Below are positions 1 to 15,044 of a stretch of 15,044 nucleotides of DNA, in pieces. Below the pieces are notes generated by a model that did no database searches, was not told where the DNA came from, and saw nothing but the letters and a program-made list of their open reading frames with translations. The translations under genes and the position numbers were made by a program. The DNA lies in IMG/VR virus record IMGVR_UViG_2713897056_000007. The stretch is one strand, 5' to 3'. How positions within the stretch are numbered: the stretch's first letter is position 1; each line of letters opens with the position of its first letter. The DNA is from a virus (lineage: Duplodnaviria; Heunggongvirae; Uroviricota; Caudoviricetes).

Positions 1-264
1 TTGGAGGATAGCCAGCTCTTCATCCCGTTCTGCCAGCTGGCGTTTGAGACGTGCAATCTCGGTAGACATCTCCAGTTCACGTTCAGAAGACGTCTGCTGA
101 TTTTGCTGTTTACTGCGCCAGTTGTAGAGCTGTGATTCATACAGGCTGAGTTCACGGGCTGCGGCAGTAACACCGATGCGTTCAGCAAGCTTCAGGGCTT
201 CACTGCGAAATTCAGGCGAATGCTGTTTACGGGGTTTTTTACTGGTTGATACTGTTTTTGTCAT
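1..264 (-). CDS. insE: IS3 transposase OrfA (InsE-like), N-terminal 88 codons; 3' end lies outside the window
   Basis: Minus-strand ATG at 264-262 translates MTKTVSTSKKPRKQHSPEFRSEALKLAERIGVTAAARELSLYESQLYNWRSKQQNQQTSSERELEMSTEIARLKRQLAERDEELAILQ, an HTH/leucine-zipper IS3 OrfA. Not in the ORF track because no stop codon falls inside the window. Confidence 0.85.
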   Translation of the reverse strand, partial: MTKTVSTSKKPRKQHSPEFRSEALKLAERIGVTAAARELSLYESQLYNWRSKQQNQQTSSERELEMSTEIARLKRQLAERDEELAILQ

Positions 265-329
265 GTGAGTCACCTCTGACTGAGAGTTTACTCACTTAGC
301 CGCGTGTCCACTATTGCTGGGTAAGATCA
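1..329 (-). mobile_element. IS3-family insertion sequence, partial; terminal inverted repeat ends at 329 and the element continues beyond the window start
   Basis: Reverse complement of 265-329 reads TGATCTTACCCAGCAATAGTGGACACGCGGCTAAGTGAGTAAACTCTCAGTCAGAGGTGACTCA, which I recognise as the IS3 left end, followed directly by the OrfA start. Recognition is from memory, not a search. Confidence 0.85.
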
Positions 330-799
330 GTAAGGCCCCGACACCACCTAAAGGTGTGCAGCCGATTACAAATTTTGACGCCAACCGCTACCTCGGAAAA
401 TGGTATGAAATAGCTCGCCTCGAGAACTGGTTCGAACGTGGTCTGGAACAGGTCAGCGCTACTTATGAAAAACGGAACGACGGAGGGATTCGCGTACTTA
501 ACCGTGGATACGATCCAACGAAAAACAAATGGAGCGAGAGCGAAGGTAAAGCATACTTTACTGGAGATACTAAAACTGCAGCGTTGAAAGTTTCGTTTTT
601 TGGCCCCTTCTATGGTGGCTATAATGTAATCAAACTGGATGATGAGTATAAGTATGCTCTTGTCAGTGGTCCGAACAGAGAATACCTATGGATTCTGGCA
701 AGGACCCAAACTATTCCAGATAATGTAAAAGCAGACTATGTGCGTACCGCTCAAAAGTTGGGATTCAATGTCAATGAACTATTATGGGTTAAACAATAA
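330..799 (+). pseudogene. Blc-like bacterial lipocalin (outer-membrane lipoprotein family), 5'-truncated by the IS3 insertion; signal peptide and lipobox missing
   Basis: Track ORF 314-799 translates ...APTPPKGVQPITNFDANRYLGKWYEIARLENWFERGL...FFGPFYGGYNVI..., with lipocalin hallmarks (NFD..RYLG.WYEIAR; FFGPFYGGYNV) resembling E. coli Blc. Its first five codons are IS3 terminal sequence with a TTG pseudo-start; host sequence begins at 330, inside the mature lipoprotein N-terminus. Confidence 0.6.
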
Positions 800-827
800 A
801 ATCCCCACCCGAAATGATACTTATTAG

Positions 828-854
828 AAAAAAACCAGCCTTTGGGGAGGCTGG
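828..854 (-). terminator. Rho-independent terminator downstream of Q (tR'-like), functional orientation minus
   Basis: CCAGCC (835-840) / GGCTGG (849-854) stem with 8-nt loop; on the minus strand it is followed by a run of seven T (complement of A828-834). No U-tract follows it on the plus strand. Confidence 0.55.
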
Positions 855-954
855 CTAAATCAGGAAACAAGCTGTTATATGATAATAACTACGTTGCGAT
901 TCCAACATTTAAAATGTTAGACTAATGAAAATCAGACAGCAACTTTTCCTTTAA

Positions 955-1332
955 TTATTTCGAACAATCAGCATCCATCTCCAATCGGAGATCCAACACC
1001 ATCAGCATGCCCTCCACTACGCCCTCAGCTTTCTGGAGCATCCTGCCAACCCAACAATCAGATCGCCCATGCTTACGTGCAAGCGCCATAAAAGTCATGC
1101 CGCCGACATAATAGTCCACCAATAAATCATGTAAATCGCTGTTGTTTTTTTTCAGGCGAGCCATACATTCACAAATGATCATCGCGTCATCGTCACAGCA
1201 TTGCGGACGAGATCTTACTTTTGAAGGAATTAATCCCTTAAAACCGGCGGCAATGGACGACCAGGTCACATCTTCATGATTATTAGCCGCCCATGCCCCC
1301 CAACGCTCAAGAACCATCTGAATATCACGCAT
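955..1332 (-). CDS. Lambdoid late-gene antiterminator Q-like protein (phage 82/21-type Q; QuuD/QuuQ-like)
   Basis: Track ORF 955-1347 begins at a TTG; the first ATG (1332) is preceded by GGAG at 7 nt. Translation [34 protein letters not shown]...[32 protein letters not shown] matches my recollection of small Q antiterminators of E. coli cryptic prophages. Placement (last gene of the rightward operon, followed by a terminator) fits. Confidence 0.7.
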
Positions 1333-1349
1333 CAACTTACTCCACAAAA

Positions 1350-2399
1350 TTAGGCCAGCACACCAATTGCCAGCGCGCGATCGATAAATCGAAAAATCAG
1401 CTCCAGTTGGGAGCCATACTTCTCTTCAAATGCCACGGTATCCGTATGCAACTCGTCGTGATGCTTTCTGCACAAAGGCAAAACAAAGAGATCATGTGCT
1501 TTGGTTCCCATTCCGCCCTGCCCGTGACCAATCAGATGATGCGGATCGTCGGCTGGCATACCGCAGCAAGCACACGGCTGTGTCTTAACCCAGCGTGTGT
1601 ATTTCTCCTTAACCCACCGGTGACGTTTAGGCAGCTTCATGAAAGATTCCGGAGACTCTGGATCAACGGTGATGCTTACCACCGTCTTTTCCTGTGATGG
1701 GTTTTGTTGCTGGTGGGCGTGAGGCAACGGTGCAAGATTTTTTGTGCGCTGTTTCAATATGCTGGTGGCGGTCTGCTCTCCCGGTACGATGTCGCTTTCG
1801 CGGTACACCGAGCAGATTTTTTCCGCTGGTAATCCCAGCGAGCGACGTAATACCGCTTCCGGTAGCGCGTCCGCCAGCTGATTGCGGACCGCCCACCAGG
1901 ATAATTCAGCCAGAGATAATTCACGCTCCTGCGTACCGCTTATTGCGTGACCGATGACGTCAATCATCCATGCTGACAGGTTTTGATGAGCAAGTTGCTC
2001 GAGTGATTCGGATGTCTGGTCACGCAGCTGGTTGTCGCAGTGCCAGCACAACACCATTGCGCCGGTACCATAACGGTGAATGACGGTTTCACTATGGTGA
2101 TAATCGCCGTGTGGCCACTGGCAGGATTTAACATGGCGCAGTAACCAGTCAGACAATGCGCCAGCGCCACCAGCAGCACGAATCACTCGTTCGTCGCTGA
2201 AAAATGGCAGTAATGATTTATCCTCCGCCAGCGGCTGGCGAACGGCAGGAACGACCCCGGACGGCAGATTACGCATGCTTTTCGGTTCCGGCTCCACCAG
2301 TACCCGGGTATTGTGGAATACCGGCATGGATTCACGGCCCGGCTTAACGATCACCAGCCCGAGTTCCGGTACCAGAACAGGTCGAAGTAATACCCGCAC
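1350..2399 (-). CDS. ydfU: YdfU-like DUF968 prophage protein with C-terminal HNH-like Cys/His motif
   Basis: 349-aa ORF with GTG start preceded by GGAGG at 4 nt, translationally coupled to the upstream gene (stop at 2401-2403). C-terminus ...[20 protein letters not shown]...[10 protein letters not shown] is an HNH-type zinc-finger nuclease signature. Lies next to Q as ydfU does next to quuQ in Qin (from memory). Confidence 0.75.
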
Positions 2400-2400
2400 G

Positions 2401-2679
2401 TTACCTCCAGATGCGTTGCTGGAATGTGCGGGACGGACGCGGTGGGCGTTCGGAGTAAGGAAGCCTGACGGAGATTATCCAGTGACGGTAGCCGAGGCTA
2501 AGGGCTTTTTTAACCTCGTATCCGCGCCTGCGGTAACACTGAATTATCCATTCAGCCTGCTCTTCAGTGCATGGTGGATGCTGGAACCAGTCCGATTTGA
2601 ATGCATGAAAACGCCGTCCGCACCTGCTGGCAAAGACGGCAGAATCATCAGAATTGTGTAATTTGGTATCGTGCGCCAT
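2401..2679 (-). CDS. Hypothetical prophage protein (nin-region position; possibly Rem-like); start uncertain
   Basis: Track ORF 2401-2790 begins at a TTG with no SD. The only in-frame ATG is at 2679 (MAHDTKLHNSDD...CTEEQAEWIIQCYRRRGYEV...), with a weak SD. Stop abuts the ydfU start. Confidence 0.4.
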   Translation of the reverse strand: MAHDTKLHNSDDSAVFASRCGRRFHAFKSDWFQHPPCTEEQAEWIIQCYRRRGYEVKKALSLGYRHWIISVRLPYSERPPRPSRTFQQRIWR

Positions 2680-3033
2680 CGGTTGTCTCTGCTGGCGCAG
2701 CAGGTGCCAGTTGTTCAGGCTGGCGTATAAAGTATAAATAAACTGGTTCCAGTGTAAAGCCCCTACATTAATGGAATAAAAGTCAAACAACAGATTGTTG
2801 GGATAAACACAACGCTTATTATTAAAAGCGATTAGATAAATTAAATTTTAATGTTATGCAATTTTACCAGATCACCATAACATCTCGTTTGAAACCACCG
2901 AAACAACAACCATATCAATATTGATTATGTTAAAGTGAGTAAATATGGAAAACAACAAATCTGCACATTACGCTCCTTTTTTATCTGTGATACTTTTTGT
3001 TTTATGCTGTGTGTGGGCATTATTTTTATAAAA

Positions 3034-3063
3034 ATATTTACAGATAAAATAAACCCGCCGAAG
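3034..3063 (-). terminator. Rho-independent terminator downstream of hok (minus-strand orientation)
   Basis: Stem AACCCGC (3046-3052) / GCGGGTT (3057-3063) with a 4-nt loop; on the minus strand it is followed by TTATTTTATCT. No T-tract on the plus-strand side. Confidence 0.55.
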
Positions 3064-3137
3064 CGGGTTAAGCGCGGGTGCGTTGAGGATGCCTGACACA
3101 TCAGAGGCGGCGAGGGATTTCTCCCTCGCCAAGTCTC

Positions 3138-3293
3138 TTACTCCTCAGGTTCGTAGACTGTGAAGACAGCGACCTCCATCTGGCCGGTTCGGATTCGTAC
3201 CTCGCAGAGGTCTTTCCTCGTTACCAGTGCCGTCACTATGACGGTTAAACAGATGACGATCAGGGCGATTAACATCGCCTTTTGCTGCTTCAT
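3138..3293 (-). CDS. hokD: Hok-family type I toxin (HokD/RelF-like small membrane toxin)
   Basis: ATG at 3293 with AAGGAG 9 nt upstream; 51-aa product MKQQKAMLIALIVICLTVIVTALVTRKDLCEVRIRTGQMEVAVFTVYEPEE, near-identical to my recollection of HokD/RelF. Track ORF 3138-3350 is the same frame extended 19 codons upstream to an ATG at 3350. Confidence 0.85.
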   Translation of the reverse strand: MKQQKAMLIALIVICLTVIVTALVTRKDLCEVRIRTGQMEVAVFTVYEPEE

Positions 3294-3504
3294 AGCCTGC
3301 TTCTCCTTGCCTTTCGGCACGTAAGAGGCTAACCTAGATTTGCCGTTCATAGATTGAGCCTCAGATTAATGTTAAGCGTCTTGCAGGACGCGTAATGTTA
3401 ACTGGGGCTTTTCTCTATCTGCCTTTGGTGTTCATGCCTGAGGCAGATAGCCTCAAGCACCCGCAGCAATTCTACTTAACTCCCGTCACCTCGCCAATAT
3501 AAAA

Positions 3505-3594
3505 TCAATCAGAAAGGCGATCCATAAGAACAACAGCAAGACAATAAATTGCCATTACAGCCGCAATAGCTAGCGCACATTTGAGAACCAGCAC
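3505..3594 (-). CDS. Candidate small hydrophobic peptide (29 aa, GTG start), unannotated-type sORF upstream of hok
   Basis: GGAGG then 5 nt then GTG at 3594; translation (M)LVLKCALAIAAVMAIYCLAVVLMDRLSD is a single predicted transmembrane helix. A candidate promoter TTGAAT-17-CATATT lies upstream on the minus strand. Below the track's length cutoff; coding status unproven. Confidence 0.25.
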   Translation of the reverse strand: MLVLKCALAIAAVMAIYCLAVVLMDRLSD

Positions 3595-3910
3595 GACAAC
3601 CTCCTGTATTGGACGTACACCAGTTCTGATAAATATGAGGCTGTCTCATCATTGATTCAATATAACTATTGGGTATAGTTTCTGTGATTTTGTTCTGTAG
3701 AAATGGAACACAACAACCAGTCACCACCAGCACTTCTTTAAATACGCCAAGTCCGACGCAAGCTAACCTTCTAGTCCGCTTTGAGCGATCTGCAGACATT
3801 GCTAGCAGCCTTCTGTGTGAATTCTCAGGGAGCAGGTCGGCATAGCATCACGTTGAGGCTCTTACCCTACTTGTTGACACCAACCCTAACTCCACAGACT
3901 GATTCATAAA

Positions 3911-4912
3911 TTAGTAATCTGCGTGTTTCGCACTTTTCAGAAATGCTTTCATATTTTCATTAGGTCGCTCAATTTCGAAGTTACTTCCATATAACTCTTG
4001 TAATTTTGGCCATAACTTACTTAATAACCCTCTCCTGCGATAAAATGGATGTATCCAAACGGTAGATAGGTACGGAGAATTTGCATTTGAATTGTTTATT
4101 GTGACCAGCCCAACTAAACATTGTCGATAACCACTATTATCCATTGATTGTATTTCTTCGACGAATGGATACGCGATTACATCAGTCCAACCATGATCGG
4201 TTGTATCCCATTGCATTCCGTCATGACATTCCTTCGACTGATAGCGGCGTAAAGCTACACACGCGAGCTTTTGCCAATCTGGAGAATTAATTGTGATCTC
4301 TTCATCGTATGACGCGCCTATTGGAGCGGGTATTGGTCTGATTAATCCAGCATGGCATTCATCATAGAACTTCATGTTTCCCTCAGAAACGTTGTGTACG
4401 TTGGGTTGCTCCATGTGTGCGCCATTCAAAAATAGCTCTGATAGTAGTGTATCTACACTGTAATCTTTATTGATTATTGTCGGCTTAGAGTTTTTCTTAT
4501 TAAGGCCGCGAGTAACGATTTTTTGATCAATGTTAACAACATGGAATAATCCGTCGGGGAGGCTAGCGAACCACGATGGGGCATCGGACCAGAATAGCAT
4601 GCCTTTTGTACTTCTTAAGAGTTTAATTAAGTTAATACAAGCTTCTTCACTAGTCTTGCCGTTGATGCGAAGTATGTTAGGACTAAAGTAATATTCATCC
4701 ATATCAGGGAATGCAGCTTCGCAAAACTCCTGTACATAATTTAGCACCTGGATTCTACAGAGATCATCATAGCTGGTAATAACTAAGGGGGTATCTTCAT
4801 TACTATTATGATTATCAATAATGCAATCTATAGCGAGACTTACTGCTTTGCGTATCACTTCAGTTGAATCTAACGACTCTAAAAATTTTGTCTTTCGTGT
4901 GCGAATATCCAT
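3911..4912 (-). CDS. Hypothetical protein, downstream gene of AT-rich two-gene cassette; weak GNAT-like motif near C-terminus
   Basis: 333-aa ORF, ATG at 4912, 15 nt after the stop of the upstream cassette gene. N/K/I/Y-rich, AT-rich coding sequence unlike its neighbours. C-terminal ...CLVGLVTI...YLSTVWIHPFYRRRGLLSKLW loosely resembles the GNAT CoA-binding strand-helix; tentative. Confidence 0.7.
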   Translation of the reverse strand: MDIRTRKTKFLESLDSTEVIRKAVSLAIDCIIDNHNSNEDTPLVITSYDDLCRIQVLNYVQEFCEAAFPDMDEYYFSPNILRINGKTSEEACINLIKLLRSTKGMLFWSDAPSWFASLPDGLFHVVNIDQKIVTRGLNKKNSKPTIINKDYSVDTLLSELFLNGAHMEQPNVHNVSEGNMKFYDECHAGLIRPIPAPIGASYDEEITINSPDWQKLACVALRRYQSKECHDGMQWDTTDHGWTDVIAYPFVEEIQSMDNSGYRQCLVGLVTINNSNANSPYLSTVWIHPFYRRRGLLSKLWPKLQELYGSNFEIERPNENMKAFLKSAKHADY

Positions 4913-4927
4913 GTATGACCTGCGCTA

Positions 4928-5950
4928 TTAAAATTCATGAATGAACGGTTTGTCATCTGGTTGCAAAATGGTGGTTTTATTCGTTGCTACATTTAAACTG
5001 TTGTAGAGCATAATTGCCAGGTTCGATGCATTTTCAATCAGCGTTTCAAGATCCTGGTCTGTAATCACTACGAGGTTCCCTTCTTTATCCTTTCCACCAC
5101 GATGCACTAAGTGATTTCGATTGAGGGTTGCCAATTCAATAGCTTCTATCGGACAGTCTTTTTGTACTTTTATATCGAATGTAGCTTCATAGCGGTCGAT
5201 TACCTTTTTAGTGCTATGCCAGCTTGCACTGATCAAGTGTTCCTTGATTGACCTGATTAGCTCTCCCCTAATTTTCTCGATGGGTTCACCCTTGAAAGGC
5301 AACGCAGCAATATCTTTGCTTACTTTAAATTCAGTCTTACCTTTTTCTATACAATTGGCTATGTAGACATCATCTTTCTCTATAGAATTAATGAATAGCT
5401 CAACATAAAGCGTTTCCAAAGCTGTAATAACATTCGTGTAGAGCAAACTAAGCAAGTGGTTTTTTTGCTGTTGTTCAGTTTTATCTTTTGCAAGTTTTTT
5501 TATTTTATCGATATTATCAATGAATTTTAAATACGGATTACCGGAAGACGTTACAGCGTCGTAGATATCATCATCGTACCAATCATCTATATTATTTGAG
5601 TTTCCAGACCAGTCAAAACATTGTGTTTGTAATTCATCTACTAATTCCTCAATATACTCAGATTTAACATATTGACCGAAGATGGATTGTAGTTCTTCGC
5701 TCGCATCATACGGCCCGCCATATATGTAAGCATAGCCACCTTCTCTACTTTCATACGGACAAGCATTTGCCGGATCTTCAAAGTTTTCAAAGAACCAGTT
5801 TTTCATTACTTCGAGTTGATCTTTTTTGCTTATGTATTTTAAAGATTTTAGTGGAACTTTCTTTCCATTAACCTCGAAAACAATTTTCACGATGTAACGC
5901 TCCCTTGTATCAATTGCGCAACTATTATACCACAGCGAAATACAGGGCAT
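4928..5950 (-). CDS. Hypothetical protein with C-terminal HEPN-like RNxxxH motif, upstream gene of AT-rich two-gene cassette
   Basis: ATG at 5950 preceded by AAGGAGG at 6 nt. Alternative GTG start at 5890 (MKIVFEVNGKK...) with AGGGAG SD and an extended -10 TGGTATAAT (5932-5924, minus). Motif ATLNRNHLVHRGG about 50 aa from the C-terminus fits the HEPN Rx4-6H signature. Track ORF 4928-6040 over-extends to a non-ATG start. Confidence 0.7.
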   Translation of the reverse strand: MPCISLWYNSCAIDTRERYIVKIVFEVNGKKVPLKSLKYISKKDQLEVMKNWFFENFEDPANACPYESREGGYAYIYGGPYDASEELQSIFGQYVKSEYIEELVDELQTQCFDWSGNSNNIDDWYDDDIYDAVTSSGNPYLKFIDNIDKIKKLAKDKTEQQQKNHLLSLLYTNVITALETLYVELFINSIEKDDVYIANCIEKGKTEFKVSKDIAALPFKGEPIEKIRGELIRSIKEHLISASWHSTKKVIDRYEATFDIKVQKDCPIEAIELATLNRNHLVHRGGKDKEGNLVVITDQDLETLIENASNLAIMLYNSLNVATNKTTILQPDDKPFIHEF

Positions 5951-6081
5951 AACCTGCCTCCTTAAACTAACATACCATGAGCCAGCAATGTCCGCTATTG
6001 GCACAAAGCGGACAACCACGCTAGCTCTACCCTGTGCCACAAAATGTCAATTTGCATCTGAACTAATGCACTTTAATCTCG

Positions 6082-6504
6082 TCACTTCAATAAATACCGA
6101 ACATCACCCTGATAAAACGACAATATGCGCTGCATAACTTCACTCTTCCGGCACTCGCGACAGATTATGTTCTGACGCCTGTCGTAGCGACGTATTTCTC
6201 CGTCAGGTAATGACCAGATAAGGTCCGGATCAACCGCAGATGGTTTCTTCAGCTTTGCCCTTGAGAGCTTTTTACGGGCATTTTGCCAGTCCTTACGCGC
6301 CTGTTCAGACGGGAATAACCCGTAACCAGAGTTGCATACATCGCCGCTGGCAACCAGCTCTCTTGCGAGAACGCTCATCAGATATCTTGTCGCACCTGTC
6401 TTGACTTCCAGTTGCCGTAACGTCTCACGCCCACTCTGGCGTACGAGTTCAACAACCTGTCCTTTAATTTTTTCCCGCTCTTCTTGTGTAAAAACTTTTG
6501 CCAC
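6082..6504 (-). CDS. Hypothetical prophage protein (140 aa) downstream of the replisome organizer
   Basis: GTG start at 6504 with AGGAGG 4 nt upstream; product MAKVFTQEEREKIKGQVVELVRQSG...RRQNIICRECRKSEVMQRILSFYQGD. No family recognised. Confidence 0.6.
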   Translation of the reverse strand: MAKVFTQEEREKIKGQVVELVRQSGRETLRQLEVKTGATRYLMSVLARELVASGDVCNSGYGLFPSEQARKDWQNARKKLSRAKLKKPSAVDPDLIWSLPDGEIRRYDRRQNIICRECRKSEVMQRILSFYQGDVRYLLK

Positions 6505-6644
6505 AAGCCCTCCTGAAAATTACCTCATGACCAGAAATTAACACTTACCCCCTGAAGCCCGGCGGAATTTCGTTATCCGGTTCAGAAATATGATTCACAC
6601 AACGCTGGTTGTTCGTGCCGCTTACCGGGAGCAACCAGGGGTTC

Positions 6645-7616
6645 TCAAAATTCCGGTCCGGTCCAAAAAAACGTCGTCGCTCGCTGAACAAATTCCGTTC
6701 CCGTTTTCCCGGTAGCCGCCAAGTATCTTGCGTAACGCCTCACGCCATCCAGCATGGCCTCTGGTGGCACCCCCTCGCGTAATCTGGCCTTCCAGGCACT
6801 GAAAGCGGATTTCTTCGGGTTTGCCCCAGCACGCAACGGGTACTCCCGCCAGACCTGTTCGAACACATCCGGATAATCCACTCGTCCCACAGACTGCCCG
6901 ATGTTTTCCGGGACTACCCGATCGGCTTCCCGCTGAATGGCGGAATCGGCTTCGGGCTGCTGCAGTTGGTGTGATTGCTCCGGCCTTGCGGTCATCACCT
7001 GCTGCACAGCGCCCGAATCGGCTTTCAGCGCATACGCTGAATCGGCTTCCGGTGTCGTGCCTGCTGGCTGACCAGGATTGACGGTCTGAACATCCCCTGC
7101 CTGGTTCGTGGCGTTTTTTACGCCATGGACCATAGTGTTTTGATCTTCTTGATCTGTATCTTTATCTGTATCTTTATCTGTCGTGACTCGTCGTGACATG
7201 TGCGTGACATTTCGTGACGCGCCGTGACAATCGCCATTTTGTTCCCGCTTTCTTTCCCTCTCTCGCTGCGCCCTCTTGCGCTCTGCAGGAGATTTTGCGG
7301 TTTGCGAAATATTGCCGTTGTCCTCTTTAAGCACCTGGCGTTTTTCCCATCCAGTGATTAAATCACCATCAAGTACCCGCCCCTGCATCGTCTGCAAAAT
7401 TGAATCAATTACCTCTTCTGTCACGTCGAGCGCACTTGCCAAATCTTCTGTCGTGACATCAATGTGACCTCGCGTGACATTTCGTGACGCGCTCACCAGG
7501 AGGTGGATATACACTGCCATCACTGTTGCAATTGGCTGCCCTGACACCCTGGCAATTGTTCGCCACTTAGGGTCATTTGGCATGTCATGCCATAATCTGA
7601 GCCAGGCGTTAGCCAT
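6645..7616 (-). CDS. Phage replisome organizer / replication initiation protein (lambda O-like)
   Basis: ATG at 7616 with AGAGG upstream (track ORF starts at a GTG two codons earlier). N-terminus MANAWLRLWHDMPNDPKWRTIARVSGQPIATVMAVYIHLL is typical of the phage replisome-organizer N-terminal domain. Gene carries internal iteron-like repeats, as lambda O does. Confidence 0.75.
   Translation of the reverse strand: MANAWLRLWHDMPNDPKWRTIARVSGQPIATVMAVYIHLLVSASRNVTRGHIDVTTEDLASALDVTEEVIDSILQTMQGRVLDGDLITGWEKRQVLKEDNGNISQTAKSPAERKRAQRERERKREQNGDCHGASRNVTHMSRRVTTDKDTDKDTDQEDQNTMVHGVKNATNQAGDVQTVNPGQPAGTTPEADSAYALKADSGAVQQVMTARPEQSHQLQQPEADSAIQREADRVVPENIGQSVGRVDYPDVFEQVWREYPLRAGANPKKSAFSAWKARLREGVPPEAMLDGVRRYARYLAATGKTGTEFVQRATTFFWTGPEF
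7148..7228. repeat. Iteron-like array inside the O-like gene: tandem ATCTGTATCTTT units, then five CGTGAC motifs at 10-11 bp spacing (candidate ori)
   Basis: CGTGAC at 7182, 7192, 7203, 7213 and 7223; tandem 12-mer ATCTGTATCTTT at 7152-7175; GATC sites at 7142 and 7151. Encoded on the minus strand as ...SRRVTTDKDTDKDTD... Confidence 0.55.
7452..7488. repeat. Second CGTGAC iteron-like cluster within the O-like gene
   Basis: CGTGAC/TGTGAC at 7452, 7463, 7473 and 7483 at about 10-bp spacing; the 21-mer GCGTGACATTTCGTGACGCGC is identical to 7202-7222; an inverted copy GTCACG sits at 7419-7424. Confidence 0.5.
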
Positions 7617-7687
7617 ACTCACCTCTTCTGATACCGAATCTTTTTACTCACGAGTTGCCGGAAGCGATTCGATATGGCTATTGTCAG

Positions 7688-8113
7688 TCAATGTACTGCC
7701 ACAGCATTTCCTGCCGGGCCACCACGGTTCATCTGATTGAAACCGGCGATTGCCACTGCGACAAAATCATCAGCGTCTCTCACCAGTCGCTCCCGCGTCT
7801 CCACCAGCTCCCGAAAATAAGCTGAACTGTGGCTGCGCATTCTGGCCACCAGCAAAGGTGGCATTGCCTTTTCGATCGCTGGTAACAACGCCTGAATTTT
7901 TTCAACTGCATCAGGGGTGTCTTTCTCTATCCAGCGGAAAATTTTCTGGGTATTGCGAGCCAGGGCTTCCGGATGGCTGTCGTCGTACAGTTCAGGAAAC
8001 GTCATACCCAACTCAAAATAAGCCTGGGTTATTCCAGCTGCCGGAACTTTTTCGCCATCAGGACGCGCCCAGGCATTCATCGCCATGCGGATGTGTTCAT
8101 GCTTGATTTTCAT
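7688..8113 (-). CDS. ydaT: YdaT-like protein (CII-position gene of Rac-type immunity regions)
   Basis: ATG at 8113 preceded by AAGGGGGGA; 141-aa product MKIKHEHIRMAMNAWARPDGEK... Immediately downstream of, and overlapping, the Cro-like gene, as in Rac ydaS-ydaT. Family assignment from memory and synteny. Confidence 0.6.
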   Translation of the reverse strand: MKIKHEHIRMAMNAWARPDGEKVPAAGITQAYFELGMTFPELYDDSHPEALARNTQKIFRWIEKDTPDAVEKIQALLPAIEKAMPPLLVARMRSHSSAYFRELVETRERLVRDADDFVAVAIAGFNQMNRGGPAGNAVAVH

Positions 8114-8339
8114 GAATCCCCCCTTGGTTAGAAGGCGGATTATGATCAGAACCGGGAATGACAACCGTCGGTATGTGTAACTCATATTTGAGCGCCCCGG
8201 CAGTGACTGCCTGAATTAGCAACGCCCATTTCCACGGAACCTCTTCCCCCCACATACTGACTGTGGTTTTTGACGTTCCTAGAGCTGCGGCTGTTTTAAC
8301 AACTCCGCCAAAATAGCCTAATACTTCTGATTTTTTCAT
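8097..8339 (-). CDS. ydaS: YdaS-like Cro-type HTH regulator (cro analogue)
   Basis: ATG at 8339 with GGAG 6 nt upstream; 80-aa product MKKSEVLGYFGGVVKTAAALGTSKTTVSMWGEEVPW... (HTH of YdaS/Cro type). Divergent from the CI-like repressor; overlaps the ydaT start by 17 nt. Confidence 0.6.
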   Translation of the reverse strand: MKKSEVLGYFGGVVKTAAALGTSKTTVSMWGEEVPWKWALLIQAVTAGALKYELHIPTVVIPGSDHNPPSNQGGIHENQA

Positions 8340-8367
8340 GAGTCGCTCCATAAAACTGAACGCCAAA

Positions 8368-8433
8368 AGTTTAATAATCAAAACCAAAGAAAGTCAAGAA
8401 ACAAAACCATCTGTGTTTTAAAATCAAAACATG
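8368..8433. promoter_or_regulatory. Divergent PR / PRM-like switch region with operator palindromes
   Basis: Minus strand: -35 TTGACT (8397-8392), 18-bp spacer, -10 TAAACT (8373-8368), upstream of ydaS. Plus strand: -10-like TAAAAT (8419-8424) about 7 bp before the cI ATG, with no SD. Palindrome TGTTTT-N6-AAAACA (8414-8431) overlaps the cI start; a weaker copy at 8369-8384. Confidence 0.45.
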
Positions 8434-9069
8434 AACAAGCAAACAATATCTGAACGCATAACCCAACGTATGCATGCGCTAAACCTGAAAGGCAAAGACC
8501 TTGTCAATGCCACTGGCGCATCAAAAGGCTCCGTAAGTCAATGGATGAACGGTGGAGGAGCGCCGTCCTCGCGTTACATAAGTTCACTGGCAAAAATATT
8601 GAAAGTAAACGAAAATTGGCTTCTTAATGGAGGAGAGTTAAATACAGGTGATTCGCTTGATCTATCTTTACCGCCGATAAAAACGGTTCCGCTACTATCA
8701 CTTCAGCAGGCAGCAAGCTGGAGTGATTATATGAAAAATTCCTCAATAACCTCTTGTGTGCAGCTTGTCGGAGAAATCCCGGCCAATACCTTTGCAGTTG
8801 TTCTAGAGAGTGACAGTATGTCAACATCTGGTGGGGGAGTTTCCATCCCAAATGGTTCAACAGTTTTTGTTGATCCCGATCGAACCGTACAACCAGGAAA
8901 TATTGTCCTTGCCTTACCCAAAGGGACCACAACACCTGTCATTCGTAAACTGGAGATAGAAGGGCCGGATATTCTTTTAGTCCCCACGAATCCTCGCTAC
9001 CCTTCAATTATGCTGGATGATCTATCTTGCATATTGGGCGTATGCTTTAAAATTCAACAAAATATTTAA
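8431..9069 (+). CDS. CI-like prophage repressor (N-terminal HTH, C-terminal S24/LexA-type autopeptidase)
   Basis: 212-aa product; HTH region LKGKDLVNATGASKGSVSQWMNG; C-terminal ...VVLESDSMSTSG...VIRKLE...LLVPTNPRYPSIM parallels lambda CI (EGNSM ... FKKLIRD ... LQPLNPQYPMIP). Divergently placed relative to the Cro-like gene. Confidence 0.8.
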   Translation: MNKQTISERITQRMHALNLKGKDLVNATGASKGSVSQWMNGGGAPSSRYISSLAKILKVNENWLLNGGELNTGDSLDLSLPPIKTVPLLSLQQAASWSDYMKNSSITSCVQLVGEIPANTFAVVLESDSMSTSGGGVSIPNGSTVFVDPDRTVQPGNIVLALPKGTTTPVIRKLEIEGPDILLVPTNPRYPSIMLDDLSCILGVCFKIQQNI

Positions 9070-9134
9070 CCGACCTCATCTATTTGATTAACTGTATGCC
9101 ATCGTGGTGATGGCTTAACAGCTGCCTGCTTAAA

Positions 9135-9182
9135 ATGTTTTGATAAAAAAACATTGACCTGAAAAGTTCATTTTTCTAAACT
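9135..9182 (+). promoter_or_regulatory. PL-like early-left promoter with overlapping operator palindrome
   Basis: -35 TTGACC (9154-9159), 17-bp spacer, -10 TAAACT (9177-9182), the same -10 hexamer as the PR candidate. Palindrome ATGTTTT-N6-AAAACAT (9135-9154) abuts the -35 and matches the operator motif at 8414-8431. Confidence 0.4.
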
Positions 9183-9361
9183 TCATTCATTCCCTCTCCC
9201 CACCCCACAGAATGCAGGGCAATACTTCTAGTTACCAGGCAGTGGTCAGGGGTTAAGTAGCCAGCCCGAGGCGTAAGAACATGACGGCAGGGTTCAACTT
9301 TAATAACTATGCAGCAGGTTTTTGTTCCGCTACCCCGGCGTTAAGGGGAAATGAGGTCAGC

Positions 9362-9517
9362 ATGGATACTATCGATCTTGGCAACAGCGAATCTCTGGTA
9401 TGTGGCGTGTTCCCCAACCAGGACGGTACGTTCACCGCGATGACGTATACCAAAAGCAAAACGTTTAAAACCGAAAATGGTGCCCGTCGCTGGCTGGAAA
9501 GAAACTCAGGTGAGTGA
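9362..9517 (+). CDS. ydfA: YdfA-like small prophage protein (51 aa)
   Basis: ATG at 9362 with GAGGT upstream; MDTIDLGNSESLVCGVFPNQDGTFTAMTYTKSKTFKTENGARRWLERNSGE. Length and position (first gene after the repressor, before ydfB/ydfC/dicF/dicB) match the Qin dicA-ydfABC-dicF-dicB operon as I recall it. Track ORF 9281-9517 is the same frame extended upstream. Confidence 0.55.
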   Translation: MDTIDLGNSESLVCGVFPNQDGTFTAMTYTKSKTFKTENGARRWLERNSGE

Positions 9518-9518
9518 T

Positions 9519-9647
9519 ATGGATTTCGACACAATCATGGAAAAGGCTTACGAAGAATACTTCGAAGGCCTTGCCGAAGGCGAAGAAGCTCTCAGCTTCA
9601 GTGAGTTTAAACAGGCGCTTTCCAGCTCGGCAAAATCTAACGGCTGA
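9519..9647 (+). CDS. ydfB: YdfB-like small acidic protein (42 aa)
   Basis: ATG at 9519 with AGGTGA 5 nt upstream, overlapping the ydfA stop; MDFDTIMEKAYEEYFEGLAEGEEALSFSEFKQALSSSAKSNG. Not in the ORF track (short). The out-of-frame track ORF 9514-9723 looks non-coding. Confidence 0.5.
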   Translation: MDFDTIMEKAYEEYFEGLAEGEEALSFSEFKQALSSSAKSNG

Positions 9648-9676
9648 TAAGCGAAGCAGCACCGCGAGGAATCAGT

Positions 9677-9898
9677 ATGCAGAAACGAGAACCCGTCATC
9701 ATCGCGCCAGACTATACCAATGATGAACTTTATGAGTGGATGCGCCAGAAAATTAATGCAGCGCAGGATTTGAAATGGGCCAATGAAGCCAGGGCTAAGC
9801 AGGCTGAAAATCTGTCCGCTCTGGAGCAGGATATCACCAATCTGGAAAAAGCAGCGGCATTAAGCATTGCCAGAATGATTACATACCCGCGTGAATAG
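9677..9898 (+). CDS. ydfC: YdfC-like small prophage protein (73 aa)
   Basis: ATG at 9677 with GAGGA 6 nt upstream; MQKREPVIIAPDYTNDELYEWMRQKINAAQDLKWANEARAKQAENLSALEQDITNLEKAA... Position and size fit ydfC. Confidence 0.55.
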   Translation: MQKREPVIIAPDYTNDELYEWMRQKINAAQDLKWANEARAKQAENLSALEQDITNLEKAAALSIARMITYPRE

Positions 9899-10241
9899 CT
9901 AACCAACGAAGCTAAGGTTGGTAATTAAGGAGTTCTCCACGGGTGAGGTGGAGTGCGTGCGCCGGACACGGGTGAGCATCCGGCACTGACAGTTTACTGA
10001 AAGGATATTTCCCTGAAAAGTCAGACCATAACGCGAAAGCGCACGGCGAGGTAGCTGGTTCATAGATAGCCTGTCGTTAAATTTTCGTCGACCGTGCGCT
10101 TCCGGTTGTGGCAATCCGCGAAATGGCGCGGCGGTAAGTATGGCGGGGTTATTCCTTCCACCGTTGAGGACACCGGGTTGTCAGGTTGACCATACGCTTA
10201 AGTGACAACCCCGCTGCAACGCCCTCTGTTATCAATTTTCT

Positions 10242-10294
10242 GGTGACGTTTGGCGGTATCAGTTTTACTCCGTGACTGCTCTGCCGCCCTTTTT
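10242..10294 (+). ncRNA. dicF: DicF small regulatory RNA (antisense inhibitor of ftsZ and other mRNAs)
   Basis: TTTCTGGTGACGTTTGGCGGTATCAGTTTTACTCCGTGACTGCTCTGCCGCCC followed by TTTTT matches my memory of the 53-nt DicF sequence including its intrinsic terminator; located just upstream of dicB as in Qin. Confidence 0.85.
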
Positions 10295-10463
10295 AAAGTG
10301 AATTTTGTGATGTGGTGAATGCGGCTAAGCGCACGCGGAACAGTTAAAACCAAAAACAGTGTTATGGGTGGATTCTCTGTATCCGGCGTTAATTGTTAAC
10401 TGGTTAACGTCACCTGGAGGCACCAGGCACTGCATCACAAAATTCATTGTTGAGGACGCGATA

Positions 10464-10652
10464 ATGAAAACGTTATTACCAAACGTTAATACGTCTGAAG
10501 GTTGTTTTGAAATTGGTGTCACTATCAGTAACCCTGTATTTACTGAAGATGCCATTAACAAGAGAAAACAAGAACGGGAGCTATTAAATAAAATATGCAT
10601 TGTTTCAATGCTGGCTCGTTTACGTCTGATGCCAAAAGGATGTGCACAATGA
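10464..10652 (+). CDS. dicB: Cell division inhibitor DicB (MinC-dependent)
   Basis: ATG at 10464 with GAGGA 7 nt upstream; 62 aa MKTLLPNVNTSEGCFEIGVTISNPVFTEDAINKRKQERELLNKICIVSMLARLRLMPKGCAQ, recognised as DicB. Track ORF 10359-10652 is an upstream extension of this frame. Confidence 0.85.
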   Translation: MKTLLPNVNTSEGCFEIGVTISNPVFTEDAINKRKQERELLNKICIVSMLARLRLMPKGCAQ

Positions 10653-10840
10653 ATTCAGCATTTGCGCTTGTTCTGACAGTTTTTCTTGTTTCCGGAGAGC
10701 CAGTTGATATTGCAGTCAGTGTTCACAGGACAATGCAGGAGTGTATGACTGCAGCAACCGAACAGAAAATTCCCGGTAACTGTTACCCGGTCGATAAAGT
10801 TATTCACCAGGATAATATCGAAATCCCGGCAGGTCTTTAA
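10649..10840 (+). CDS. ydfD: YdfD-like small membrane protein (reported lysis-inducing prophage protein)
   Basis: ATG at 10649 overlaps the dicB stop (ATGA); 63 aa MNSAFALVLTVFLVSGEPVDIAVSVHRTMQECMTAATEQKIPGNCYPVDKVIHQDNIEIPAGL with an N-terminal hydrophobic helix. Follows dicB as in Qin. Confidence 0.7.
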   Translation: MNSAFALVLTVFLVSGEPVDIAVSVHRTMQECMTAATEQKIPGNCYPVDKVIHQDNIEIPAGL

Positions 10841-10933
10841 AACAGTTCCGTAATAAATATCCGGTTTCATTCTTATATGCCAGCAATGGCAGGGATTTGT
10901 TCATCCTTAAATCTGTCATGAGGTTAAAACAAA

Positions 10934-13405
10934 ATGAGTAAAGTCTTTATTTGCGCCGCTATTCCTGACGAACTGGCAACAAGGGAAGAAGGCGCTGTGG
11001 CTGTAGCCACAGCCATTGAAGCTGGCGACGAACGCCGTGCTCGAGCAAAATTTCACTGGCAGTTCCTGGAACATTATCCGGCTGCTCAGGACTGCGCTTA
11101 TAAATTTATTGTCTGCGAGGATAAACCTGGCATACCCCGCCCTGCCCTCGATTCATGGGATGCTGAATATATGCAGGAAAACCGCTGGGATGAGGAGTCT
11201 GCTTCTTTTGTCCCGGTTGAGACTGAATCCGATCCGATGAACGTCACTTTTGACAAGCTGGCCCCTGAAGTACAGAACGCTGTCATGGTTAAGTTCGACA
11301 CATGTGAAAACATCACCGTTGATATGGTTATTAGCGCACAGGAATTGTTGCAGGAAGACATGGCAACATTCGACGGACATATCGTTGAAGCGTTGATGAA
11401 AATGCCAGAAGTTAACGCCATGTATCCGGAGCTTAAGTTGCACGCCATTGGGTGGGTTAAGCATAAATGTATTCCTGGTGCTAAATGGCCCGAAATTCAG
11501 GCAGAGATGCGCATCTGGAAAAAACGTCGCGAAGGTGAACGCAAGGAAACCGGAAAATACACGTCTGTTGTTGATCTCGCCCGCGCCAGAGCCAATCAAC
11601 AGTACACTGAAAATTCAACAGGAAAAATCAGCCCGGTCATTGCTGCCATTCATCGCGAATACAAGCAGACATGGAAAACACTGGATGACGAACTGGCCTA
11701 CGCTCTCTGGCCTGGTGATGTGGATGCCGGAAACATTGACGGCAGCATCCATCGCTGGGCAAAAAAAGAAGTTATCGACAACGACCGCGAAGACTGGAAG
11801 CGTATCTCGGCATCAATGCGCAAACAGCCTGATGCCCTTCGCTACGACCGCCAGACTATTTTTGGCCTTGTCCGTGAGCGTCCGATCGACATTCACAAAG
11901 ATCCCATAGCACTGAACAAATATATCTGCGAATACCTGACGACAAAGGGCGTGTTTGAGAATGAAGAAACAGACCTGGGCACTGTTGATGTTCTCCAGTC
12001 ATCAGAAACACAAACTGATGCAGTGGAAACTGAGGTATCTGATATCCCAAAAAATGAAACCGCGCCGGAAGCTGAACCATCTGTAGAGCGTGAGGGGCCG
12101 TTCTATTTCCTCTTCGCAGATAAGGACGGAGAAAAATACGGTCGCGCAAACAAACTTTCTGGTCTGGATAAGGCACTGGCTGCTGGCGCCACTGAAATCA
12201 CAAAAGAAGAATATTTTGCCCGAAAAAATGGCACATACACGGGCTTACCGCAAAATGTAGATACCGCTGAAGATTCAGAACAACCAGAGCCGATAAAAGT
12301 TACCGCTGACGAAGTAAACAAAATTATGCAGGCAGCCAATATCAGCCAGCCTGACGCCGATAAGTTGCTTGCTGCATCACGTGGTGAATTTGTTGAAGGG
12401 ATTAGTGACCCGAATGATCCGAAATGGGTTAAGGGGATCCAGACCCGCGATTCTGTGAACCAGAACCAGCATGAATCGGAACGGAACTACCAAAAAGCGG
12501 AACAAAACAGCACAAATGCGTTACAAAACGAGCCAGAAACGAAACAGCCTGAACCAGTGGCGCAACAGGAAGTGGAAAAAGTCTGCACCGCCTGCGGTCA
12601 GACCGGCGGCGGCAACTGCCCTGATTGTGGCGCGGTGATGGGCGACGCAACATACCAAGAAACATTCGATGAAGAGTATCAGGTTGAAGTTCAGGAAGAT
12701 GATCCGGAGGAAATGGAAGGCGCTGAACATCCACACAAGGAGAACACTGGCGGCAATCAGCATCACAATAGCGATAATGAAACTGGCGAGACGGCAGATC
12801 ACTCAATTAAGGTGAACGGTCATCACGAAATCACATCCACCAGCAGGACGTGTGACCATCTAATGATCGACCTTGAAACCATGGGAAAAAATCCTGATGC
12901 CCCGATCATCTCAATAGGTGCAATATTTTTCGATCCGCAAACCGGAGATATGGGACCGGAATTTAGTAAGACTATCGATCTGGAAACTGCTGGCGGAGTC
13001 ATTGATCGGGACACCTTTAAATGGTGGCTTAAGCAATCACGCGAAGCGCAATCTGCCATTATGACCGATGAAATCCCGTTAGATGATGCACTGTTACAAT
13101 TGCGGGAATTTATCGACGAAAACTCCGGTGAATTTTTTGTTCAGGTTTGGGGAAATGGAGCCAACTTCGACAACACGATTTTGCGCCGTTCATACGAACG
13201 GCAGGGGATCCCCTGCCCGTGGCGTTACTACAACGATCGCGATGTACGCACAATCGTTGAGCTGGGGAAAGCCATAGACTTCGATGCCAGAACGGCTATT
13301 CCATTCGAAGGTGAGCGCCATAATGCACTTGATGACGCCCGTTACCAGGCAAAATACGTTTCAGTTATCTGGCAAAAACTGATCCCGAGTCAGGCTGATT
13401 CTTAA
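10934..13405 (+). CDS. Large prophage exonuclease (YdfE / exodeoxyribonuclease VIII-like) with acidic linker, CxxC zinc ribbon and C-terminal DEDDh 3'-5' exonuclease domain
   Basis: 823-aa ORF, GAGGT upstream of the ATG. C-terminal motifs IDLETMG (Exo I), WGNGANFD (Exo II) and HNALDDARY (Exo III) define a DnaQ-like DEDDh fold. CTACGQTGGGNCPDCG is a zinc-ribbon-type motif. Sits between ydfD and xis/int where Qin has ydfE. Confidence 0.8.
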   Translation: MSKVFICAAIPDELATREEGAVAVATAIEAGDERRARAKFHWQFLEHYPAAQDCAYKFIVCEDKPGIPRPALDSWDAEYMQENRWDEESASFVPVETESDPMNVTFDKLAPEVQNAVMVKFDTCENITVDMVISAQELLQEDMATFDGHIVEALMKMPEVNAMYPELKLHAIGWVKHKCIPGAKWPEIQAEMRIWKKRREGERKETGKYTSVVDLARARANQQYTENSTGKISPVIAAIHREYKQTWKTLDDELAYALWPGDVDAGNIDGSIHRWAKKEVIDNDREDWKRISASMRKQPDALRYDRQTIFGLVRERPIDIHKDPIALNKYICEYLTTKGVFENEETDLGTVDVLQSSETQTDAVETEVSDIPKNETAPEAEPSVEREGPFYFLFADKDGEKYGRANKLSGLDKALAAGATEITKEEYFARKNGTYTGLPQNVDTAEDSEQPEPIKVTADEVNKIMQAANISQPDADKLLAASRGEFVEGISDPNDPKWVKGIQTRDSVNQNQHESERNYQKAEQNSTNALQNEPETKQPEPVAQQEVEKVCTACGQTGGGNCPDCGAVMGDATYQETFDEEYQVEVQEDDPEEMEGAEHPHKENTGGNQHHNSDNETGETADHSIKVNGHHEITSTSRTCDHLMIDLETMGKNPDAPIISIGAIFFDPQTGDMGPEFSKTIDLETAGGVIDRDTFKWWLKQSREAQSAIMTDEIPLDDALLQLREFIDENSGEFFVQVWGNGANFDNTILRRSYERQGIPCPWRYYNDRDVRTIVELGKAIDFDARTAIPFEGERHNALDDARYQAKYVSVIWQKLIPSQADS

Positions 13406-13477
13406 TGTTCAACTGTCGCCGGTTGTGACTGGTATTCTGCAACCGGCGCTCGTCTGATGTAAGAGATAAAGAAATCG

Positions 13478-13729
13478 ATGAGCGAAGTAATCATGATTGT
13501 CTCTCCCGGCAAATGGGTATCCGAAGAGCAGTTAATTGCGCTGAAAGGAATAAAAAAAGGTACGTTAAAAAAGGCCCGGGAAAAATCGTTTATGGAAGGA
13601 AGGGAATATAAGCATGTCGCTCATGACGGTATGCCATGGGATAACAGTCCATGCTTTTACAACCTGGAAGAAATTGATCGCTGGATTGAGCGCCAGGCAT
13701 CAGCGAGACCAAGACGTCATCTTACTTGA
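13478..13729 (+). CDS. Excisionase-like protein (putative Xis)
   Basis: 83-aa ORF immediately upstream of the integrase; small basic protein MSEVIMIVSPGKWVSEEQLIALKGIKKGTLKKAREK... Position and size are typical of lambdoid/e14-type excisionases. Start could instead be the ATG at 13493. Confidence 0.6.
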   Translation: MSEVIMIVSPGKWVSEEQLIALKGIKKGTLKKAREKSFMEGREYKHVAHDGMPWDNSPCFYNLEEIDRWIERQASARPRRHLT

Positions 13730-13763
13730 CTAAAAGCCACACTAACTAATGAGAGAAGTTGAA

Positions 13764-15044
13764 ATGAAATATCCGACAGGCGTGGAAAACCATGGAGGGA
13801 AATTACGTATCTGGTTTGTCTATAAAGGCGTAAGAGTCAGGGAAAATCTGGGGGTTCCTGACACAGCAAAAAACAGGCGCGTTGCAGGTGAACTACGCTC
13901 CTCTGTTTGTTACGCAATAAAAACTGGTGTTTTCGACTATGCAAAACAGTTTCCCTCCTCACGCAATCTGGAAAAATTTGGTGAGGCCCGACAAGATTTA
14001 ACCATAAAAGAACTGGCTGAAAAATTTCTGGCACTGAAAGAAACTGAAGTCGCCAAAACATCACTCAACACATACCGTGCCGTCATCAAAAATATCCTGA
14101 GCATAATCGGTGAAAAAAATCTTGCCTCATCGATTAATAAAGAAAAATTACTGGAGGTTCGTAAAGAGCTACTGACTGGATACCAGATCCCCAAAAGTAA
14201 CTATATTGTTACACAACCAGGGAGATCGGCTGTAACTGTAAATAATTACATGACAAATCTTAACGCCGTGTTCCAGTTTGGTGTTGATAACGGTTACCTG
14301 GCAGATAATCCGTTTAAGGGGATCTCGCCATTAAAGGAATCAAGAACCATTCCGGATCCTCTTTCGCGGGAGGAATTTATCCGTCTTATCGATGCGTGCA
14401 GAAATCAGCAAGCAAAAAATTTATGGTGTGTTTCTGTTTATACTGGCGTTCGCCCTGGTGAGCTGTGTGCACTTGGATGGGAGGACATAGATCTGAAAAA
14501 TGGAACAATGATGATCAGGAGAAATTTAGCAAAAGACCGTTTCACGGTACCAAAAACACAGGCAGGAACCAATCGGGTCATTCATCTTATTAAGCCAGCA
14601 ATCGACGCTCTCCGGAGTCAGATGACATTAACGAGACTGAGCAAAGAGCATATCATTAATGTTCACCTCAGAGAGTATGGCAGAACAGAAAAACAAAAAT
14701 GCACCTTTGTTTTTCAACCTGAAGTGTCAGCGAGAGTAAAAAATTATGGTGACCATTTTACCGTTGACTCAATAAGGCAGATGTGGGACGCAGCGATAAA
14801 ACGTGCCGGACTCCGCCATCGAAAATCATATCAGTCGAGACATACTTATGCCTGCTGGTCGCTGACAGCTGGTGCTAACCCGGCATTTATAGCAAACCAG
14901 ATGGGCCATGCAGATGCGCAAATGGTATTTCAGGTATACGGAAAATGGATGTCTGAAAACAATAATGCACAGGTAGCTTTGTTAAATACACAGTTAAGCG
15001 AGTTTGCCCCAACCATGCCCCATAACGAAGCAATGAAAAATTAA
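13764..15044 (+). CDS. Tyrosine site-specific integrase (lambda Int family)
   Basis: N-terminal arm-binding-like MKYPTGVENHGGKLRIWFVYKGVRVRENLG. Catalytic-domain motifs TGVRPGELCAL (Arg), SRHTYACW (His-x-x-Arg), MGHADAQMVFQVYGKWM (Tyr). Stop codon TAA is the last three bases of the window. Track ORF starts 5 codons earlier at an ATG with no SD. Confidence 0.9.
   Translation: MKYPTGVENHGGKLRIWFVYKGVRVRENLGVPDTAKNRRVAGELRSSVCYAIKTGVFDYAKQFPSSRNLEKFGEARQDLTIKELAEKFLALKETEVAKTSLNTYRAVIKNILSIIGEKNLASSINKEKLLEVRKELLTGYQIPKSNYIVTQPGRSAVTVNNYMTNLNAVFQFGVDNGYLADNPFKGISPLKESRTIPDPLSREEFIRLIDACRNQQAKNLWCVSVYTGVRPGELCALGWEDIDLKNGTMMIRRNLAKDRFTVPKTQAGTNRVIHLIKPAIDALRSQMTLTRLSKEHIINVHLREYGRTEKQKCTFVFQPEVSARVKNYGDHFTVDSIRQMWDAAIKRAGLRHRKSYQSRHTYACWSLTAGANPAFIANQMGHADAQMVFQVYGKWMSENNNAQVALLNTQLSEFAPTMPHNEAMKN

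Follow-up and report, generated by a model that had tools for sequence, protein, structure and literature searches.

Lambdoid prophages normally carry, directly after the antiterminator gene Q, the late promoter, a terminator and then the lysis and structural genes on the same strand. In the prophage studied here, the Q gene and its terminator are instead followed by a convergent lipocalin gene that is cut by an IS3 end, which raises the question of whether the late operon has been replaced at this point or whether a cargo gene in front of the late operon has been struck by an insertion sequence. The window, by which is meant the whole stretch of DNA analysed (15,044 nucleotides of the IMG/VR record IMGVR_UViG_2713897056_000007), was identified by whole-window comparison as a Qin-type lambdoid prophage beside rspB/rspA. 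It codes for an integrase (int), xis, an 823-aa exonuclease, dicB/ydfD, a cI-like repressor, cro, replication genes, hokD, ydfU (DUF968) and Q, while three unannotated ORFs gave no matches in PADLOC. The reading favoured here, to which we assign a probability of about 0.87, is that the window represents the early and regulatory arm, from int to Q, of a Qin-type lambdoid prophage integrated at rspB, that the late operon has not been replaced, and that IS3 has simply inserted into the lipocalin gene, the left flank being judged from the relatives of this prophage. The features on which the argument turns are as follows.

1-329, minus strand: left (transposase-proximal, IRL) end of IS3, the element continuing past the window start
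264-1, minus strand: first 88 codons of IS3 orfA (HTH_Tnp_1, E=4e-10)
314-799, plus strand: mechanical fusion ORF of 161 aa, opened by a TTG in the IS3 inverted repeat that is in frame with the lipocalin (MLGKISKAPTPP...)
330-799, plus strand: 5'-truncated blc-type lipocalin pseudogene (Lipocalin_2 and comparison with the IS-free allele)
823-856, minus strand: intrinsic terminator, tR'-like, including the T-run (terminator scan and fold)
857-954, minus strand: stretch separating Q from the terminator, where pR' (the late promoter) and a Q-loading site are expected
955-1347, minus strand: late-gene antiterminator Q of the phage-21/QuuD type (Phage_antitermQ, PF06530, E=8e-51)
3288-3462: sok (Rfam)
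10238-10289: DicF RNA (Rfam)
13749-15044: int, at the far window end

The Q gene and the terminator beyond it

The Q gene named in the preliminary description is borne out by the Phage_antitermQ match, and the protein is related to Q21, with an E-value of 5e-9 against the Q21 structures 6P18/6JNX, and shares 86% identity with QuuD of E. coli K-12. PGAP places the start of the gene 15 nt further in, giving a product of 125 aa. The C-terminal DNA-reading region of the protein differs from those of both Q21 and QuuD.

A Q-proximal terminator had been described at 828-854, and one is present within a few bases of that position, oriented for transcripts of the Q strand. Its hairpin is rich in G+C and has a 9-bp stem at 856-833 on the minus strand (AGCCAGCCT-CCCCAA-AGGCTGGTT, followed by TTTTTCT) and a folding energy of -14.9 kcal/mol (z=-3.66), with none of 200 shuffled sequences as stable. 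It lies 24 nt past the stop codon of the convergent lipocalin gene and is conserved in phage 1H12. A role as the terminator of the lipocalin gene was considered and rejected; read on the plus strand, the fold is less stable (z=-2.08) and no U-tract follows it, and the hairpin at 833-856 is thus primarily a terminator of the Q strand.

The late promoter pR' is expected between 954 and 857, where direct reading finds a candidate pair of hexamers, TTGCTG (942-937) and TAACAT (919-914), separated by a 17-nt spacer. These agree with the consensus at eight of 12 positions, a weak match under the threshold of the promoter scan, and the placement of pR' at 942-914 is accordingly put forward as a weak guess. 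The DNA that separates Q from the terminator is conserved in phage 1H12, with TAATGT as the candidate -10 hexamer there. In phage 21 the Q-binding element (QBE) contains the direct repeat TGAGCA (PMC6606751), which is absent downstream of Q in the window. Placement of pR' and the QBE by transfer from phage 21 was rejected on the absence of this repeat and on the distant relationship of the two Q proteins, as was placement from the region downstream of quuD in the K-12 prophage DLP12, where the alignment showed no homology and the promoter and terminator segment is unrelated to that of the window.

The IS3 end and the truncated lipocalin gene

The IS3 end reported to stop at base 329 was recovered as such. 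Read directly, the terminal inverted repeat (...GCTGGGTAAGATCA / ...GGGTAAGATCA) finishes at base 329, the minus strand from that base reads TGATCTTACCCAGCAATAGTGGACACGCGG..., the TGATC... inverted repeat of IS3, and orfA, with its HTH_Tnp_1 domain, begins about 65 nt inside the left end of the element. The end is identical to IS3 copies annotated by PGAP in E. coli genomes, among them the copy in the near-identical locus of strain Z0117EC0040 ('IS3-like element IS3 family transposase'), and its 60-bp terminus recurs in thousands of E. coli genomes. The exact junction of the window, IRL|GTAAGGCC, was not matched in one piece by any of 5426 complete E. coli genomes, nor was a match found in the GTDB representative genomes (species representatives) or in the JGI metagenome contigs.

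On the far side of this junction, the ORF at 314-799 matches Lipocalin_2 (PF08212) with an E-value of 5.8e-43 over profile positions 2-146 of 146. The loss of about 20 codons, including the signal peptide and the lipobox, had been proposed for this gene, and comparison with the IS-free allele of strain VCSW8 makes the figure exactly 19. That allele (14946-15470 in the VCSW8 locus; MKLWPVLTGIALSFTLIAC|KAPTPP..., 174 aa) begins with a signal peptide of the lipoprotein type, whose lipobox is LIAC, and matches the structures of E. coli Blc (3MBT, 1QWD and 2ACO) with E-values of 8e-67 to 2e-65. In the window copy the breakpoint falls inside the codon of the lipobox cysteine, Cys19 (T|GT), and what remains is the last 2 nt of that codon, codons 20-174 and the stop codon at 797-799. 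The window side of IS3 thus holds a lipocalin lacking promoter, ribosome-binding site, start codon, signal peptide and lipobox, and with the element directly against the two bases left of the Cys19 codon, this copy is a pseudogene of a member of the Blc family. It is probably a simple loss-of-function pseudogene, a plain knockout of a moron.

The chromosomal Blc of E. coli (1QWD, 2ACO, 3MBT) belongs to the same fold family and matches the phage allele over its full length; in the alignment of 3MBT with the intact phage allele roughly two thirds of the positions, judged by eye, are identical. In comparison with the chromosomal protein, the phage lipocalin is a diverged phage-borne paralogue, and the window copy of it is truncated.

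The region beyond the lipocalin gene

The preliminary description had proposed that the late operon was replaced at this point, leaving a cryptic remnant, and had offered as its alternative a moron later struck by IS3. Over 330-15044 the IS3-free relative VCSW8 matches the window at 100.0% identity; it has no IS3 at this site and carries the lipocalin gene intact. Beyond the lipocalin, on the strand of Q, it encodes a 319-aa protein with TudS and DUF1722 domains ('YbgA family') and a 237-aa protein with an AraC-type HTH (Pfam), two cargo genes that gave no matches in PADLOC. Further on stand the lysis genes essD (holin), rrrQ and rzpQ, then cspI and gnsB, and then nohA and the genes for the large terminase, portal, protease, decoration protein, major capsid protein and tail, all on the strand of Q; no replacement of the operon is seen. 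Z0117EC0040, which is 99.9% identical over the whole window, has its own IS3 in the lipocalin gene and carries the same late genes as VCSW8 through capsid and FI, the extent of the stretch compared. Its junctions (...AAGGCCCC|IS3|CCCGACACC, with a CCC duplication) are 7 bp from the site in the window and differ from those of the window, and therefore represent an independent insertion. The lipocalin 5' end lies directly across IS3 in this strain, and the remnant equivalent to that of the window is annotated by PGAP as a pseudogene. In both closest relatives, then, the genes for lysis and the head follow past the lipocalin on the strand of Q. This is the result that the preliminary description itself had named as fatal to a replaced operon, and in these relatives the claim of replacement or of a cryptic remnant is thereby refuted.

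The moron reading, by comparison, is upheld by sequenced phages. A protein search of phage records found the lipocalin in 12 Escherichia lambdoid phage records, at 96-97% identity to the IS-free allele and mostly annotated as 'Lipocalin Blc'. Phage 1H12 has the gene order Q, Lipocalin Blc (convergent), YbgA, a hypothetical gene, holin, endolysin, Rz and Bor; its gp65, 'Lipocalin Blc' (NC_049947), is the same protein in the same position, convergent after a QuuD-type Q and terminator, and the DNA downstream of Q is nearly identical to that of the window. The two differ in that only the window has an IS3 interrupting the gene at the lipobox cysteine codon, and in their backbones, which are of the Qin type in the window (ydfU/DUF968, hokD, dicB/DicF, rspB site) and of the ninE/rusA/ylcG type in 1H12. 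Phage 1H12 originates from a cultivation study of temperate coliphages (Mathieu et al. 2020; PMC6969025), which counts blc among the morons and reports it from more than 50% of the 19 lambda-like phages. The blc moron and IS disruption of this kind are both already known. A 201-bp probe centred on the insertion site matched 1133 of 5426 complete E. coli genomes, 1113 of them contiguously, so that the module is common and interruption at the site is rare (~2%).

The slot between Q and the holin gene is also swapped for other cargo. Stx phages carry stx in the same slot. In K-12, DLP12 is a close structural analogue of the window, with quuD, a convergent nmpC::IS5B and then essD-rrrD-rzpD; the two share the 86% identical Q, an IS-interrupted convergent gene for an outer-membrane protein as cargo and a lysis cassette on the strand of Q, while they differ in that the DLP12 cargo is a porin gene with IS5 near its 3' end, and that of the window a lipocalin gene with IS3 at its 5' end. 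DLP12 has lost most of its structural genes; the stretch of it compared here extends to nohD. The K-12 prophage Qin shares with the window the rspB-adjacent site, ydfU, hokD/sok, ydfA-C, DicF, dicB and ydfD, and its late region (essQ-rrrQ-rzpQ-cspI-gnsB-nohA) is likewise similar. It differs in its Q gene, ydfT (250 aa), and in carrying cspF/cspB/ynfU in the slot between Q and holin rather than the lipocalin/TudS/AraC island, and it is without most structural genes. These arrangements show that lambdoid phages generally use the interval between Q and the holin gene as a cargo slot. A cargo island of about 3.3 kb after Q and a tR'-like terminator is standard for this Q module. With the interval serving as a cargo slot, a convergent foreign gene immediately after Q and tR' is to be expected and is not anomalous. 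The correct label for the locus would be an IS3-disrupted blc moron pseudogene in a typical Qin-type lambdoid prophage, neither a prophage boundary nor a replaced operon, and beyond correct annotation its importance is slight.

It may still be argued that the prophage ends near IS3 and that its late operon was lost, for example by an IS3-mediated deletion, so that the lipocalin fragment would be either the last phage-side or the first host-side sequence. Deletions and inversions are among the rearrangements that IS3 copies can cause. No late genes lie within the window, its exact junction is unmatched in the databases searched, and IS-associated decay is common in this prophage family, Qin of K-12 being cryptic. 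Strain 300490, with an IS3 in this region, has lost the early region and has ydfU fused to rspA, and rearranged versions of the prophage therefore exist. The loss of the late operon is nonetheless quite unlikely, given that the nearest relatives (100% and 99.9% identical over ~15 kb) keep their late regions, that four of the four sister IS3 insertions examined are simple and flanked by 3-bp duplications, and that the lipocalin is cargo inside sequenced phage genomes rather than host DNA marking the end of a prophage.

Under the favoured reading of a simple insertion, IS3 would have entered the lipocalin gene within its codon for the lipobox cysteine, splitting off the promoter, start codon and signal peptide, which would lie beyond the window start, from codons 20-174. 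The far end of IS3 is then predicted to read ...GGCCTGTGTCCATATTACGTGGGTAGGATCA towards the gene (TGATCCTACCC... from the far side) and to abut ...ACTCTTATAGCATGTA, with GTA as the predicted target duplication in this genome, and the flank beyond that end is expected to be ...CTCTTATAGCATGTA, with the lipocalin 5' end, YbgA, the holin gene and the structural genes. Q-modified RNA polymerase would start between 954 and 857, pass the terminator, run antisense over the lipocalin remnant and cross IS3 co-directionally with the transposase genes, and the predicted read-through would carry it into the lysis genes. That Q-modified complexes ignore terminators is established for Q21 and Q-lambda (PMC6606751), and by analogy the insertion need not have inactivated the phage.

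A further proposal, that a shortened, cytoplasmic lipocalin is made from the TTG at 314 under the control of the outward-facing IS3 end, stands as far as the ORF is concerned: the TTG is in frame and opens 161 codons. In EP91B the same TTG is joined to a remnant in which the hydrophobic core and the lipobox survive (LLGKIIALSFTLIAC...), and PGAP annotates that fusion as an intact Blc. Expression from IS3 fared less well, and the fusion ORF in the window is probably not expressed, as the promoter scan found no promoter-like site on the plus strand of 1-694 and direct reading of 296-313 (CTTAGCCGCGTGTCCACTA) found no Shine-Dalgarno motif before the TTG. IS3-family elements carry an inward -10 in IRL and an outward -35 in IRR, and the end facing the gene is IRL, the transposase-proximal end, with its promoter pointing inward. 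Blc is an outer-membrane lipoprotein and is not known to have a cytoplasmic role, and the equivalent remnant in Z0117EC0040 is called a pseudogene, all of which makes the acquisition of a new function by a signal-less lipocalin highly improbable.

IS3 insertions in the cargo island

The survey of IS3 insertions was centred on the lipocalin site and is not exhaustive. A complete IS3 measures about 1.26 kb and carries orfA and orfB, linked by a programmed frameshift. In four sister insertions (Z0117EC0040, EP91B, XJ5.2 and GF31) the complete element and both flanks are present, with 3-bp duplications of CCC, TTG, ATT and TGT, respectively. The positions recorded within the island, apart from those of the window and Z0117EC0040, are as follows.

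EP91B: TTG site in the lipocalin 5' end, on a different prophage backbone
GF31: TGT site in the lipocalin 5' end, in the opposite orientation
XJ5.2: 3 bp upstream of the YbgA start codon (ATT duplication)
M23917: in the middle of blc
300490: at the blc 3' end
ATCC 8739: inside the TudS/YbgA gene, with another IS3 inside Q

Around the lipobox codon, a stretch of 35 bp contains at least four distinct IS3 sites, which occur in both orientations, in different strains and on two prophage backbones. The TGT site, the GTA-adjacent site of the window and the CCC site are within 8 bp of each other. In strains H48 and H49 a 148-bp span was matched in two pieces, as in EP91B.

IS3 may have a target hotspot at the 5' end of phage blc, or inactivation of the gene may be selected for again and again, a suggestion that is rather doubtful at present. 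If true, it would point to a local DNA feature preferred by the IS3 transposase, or to a cost in fitness that the phage lipoprotein imposes on some hosts, and the clustering at the lipobox region could inform either the target choice of IS3 or the cost of phage-encoded lipoproteins.

In 65 genomes an IS3 end in the opposite orientation lies upstream of the lipocalin site, no more than about 560 bp away, and among the 12 matches listed of those 65, most IS3 ends are in the TudS/YbgA gene. IS5, ISVsa5 and ISKpn26 also occur nearby.

IS3 insertions at the 5' end of the lipocalin gene

IS3 is inserted in or near the phage lipocalin gene blc, which lies convergent to Q, both in the window and in prophages of other strains, at the following positions:

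Window, 329/330: junction of IS3 with blc
Strain Z0117EC0040 (L001), 14069-14072 and 15329-15332: IS3 junctions
EP91B (L003), 1300-1304 and 2561-2564: IS3 junctions
GF31 (L005), 1279-1282 and 2539-2542: IS3 junctions
XJ5.2 (L004), 1294-1297 and 2561-2564: IS3 junctions, upstream of the YbgA gene
EP91B (L003), 2545-3057: IS3-blc fusion ORF, comparable to window 314-799

In EP91B, a TTG within the IS3 inverted repeat is joined in frame to the blc remnant (LLGKIIALSFTLIAC...), which retains the hydrophobic core and lipobox, and the fusion is annotated by PGAP as an intact Blc lipoprotein. The IS3 end is thus the predicted source of a substitute start codon and N-region for the EP91B Blc.

Independent IS3 insertions form a cluster at the blc 5' end, with four distinct sites in 35 bp. 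Target duplications of TTG, TGT and CCC occur at three of these, the window site being the fourth, and both orientations of IS3 are present. A fifth IS3 site is located 3 bp upstream of the start codon of the YbgA gene beyond blc. The cluster may mark a hotspot for IS3 targeting, or selection may repeatedly have acted against the lipoprotein.

Cargo genes and prophage decay beside blc

Two relatives of the prophage show the following features:

Strain VCSW8 (L002), 12674-14753: cargo island adjoining blc, past the position of the window start
Strain 300490 (L012), 3782-5690: ydfU-rspA fusion region

One cargo gene codes for a 2-thiouracil desulfurase domain (TudS/DUF523) fused to DUF1722 and a second for an AraC-family regulator, both on the late operon strand. 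An IS3 end is found at most about 560 bp upstream of blc in 65 genomes, and this insertion breaks the TudS gene in most of the matches listed for these. In strain 300490, IS3 is located at the blc 3' end, and a truncated rspA is joined directly to ydfU; the whole prophage early region, from int to ydfU, is therefore deleted, making this locus an example of real decay in the Qin-type prophage family.

Other genes and RNAs of the early arm

The window further encodes:

3138-3462, minus strand: hokD toxin ORF and sok antitoxin RNA (full-length, Rfam 111.7 bits)
3911-4912, minus strand: hypothetical gene, 333 aa, weak C-terminal GNAT match (E=9e-4)
4928-6040, minus strand: hypothetical gene, 370 aa by ORF (963 nt in PGAP), weak sub-threshold HEPN/RES-NTD1 match (E=2e-4)
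8431-9069, plus strand: cI-like repressor ORF, 212 aa, HTH_3 (weak, E=2.4e-4) and Peptidase_S24
10238-10289, plus strand: DicF sRNA (Rfam 76.7 bits), upstream of dicB/ydfD

The adjacent hypothetical genes, flanked by a DUF977 replication-region gene and hokD, occupy the slot that holds relBE/ydfV/flxA in the K-12 Qin prophage. PADLOC returned no match for either, and they could represent an uncharacterised accessory or defence pair. The N-terminal HTH half of the cI-like repressor appears to have been overlooked by PGAP, since only a 339-nt 'LexA family protein' gene, corresponding to the C-terminal S24 part of the 212-aa ORF, is annotated here in near-identical genomes. The hokD/sok and DicF-dicB/ydfD loci are standard Qin features.
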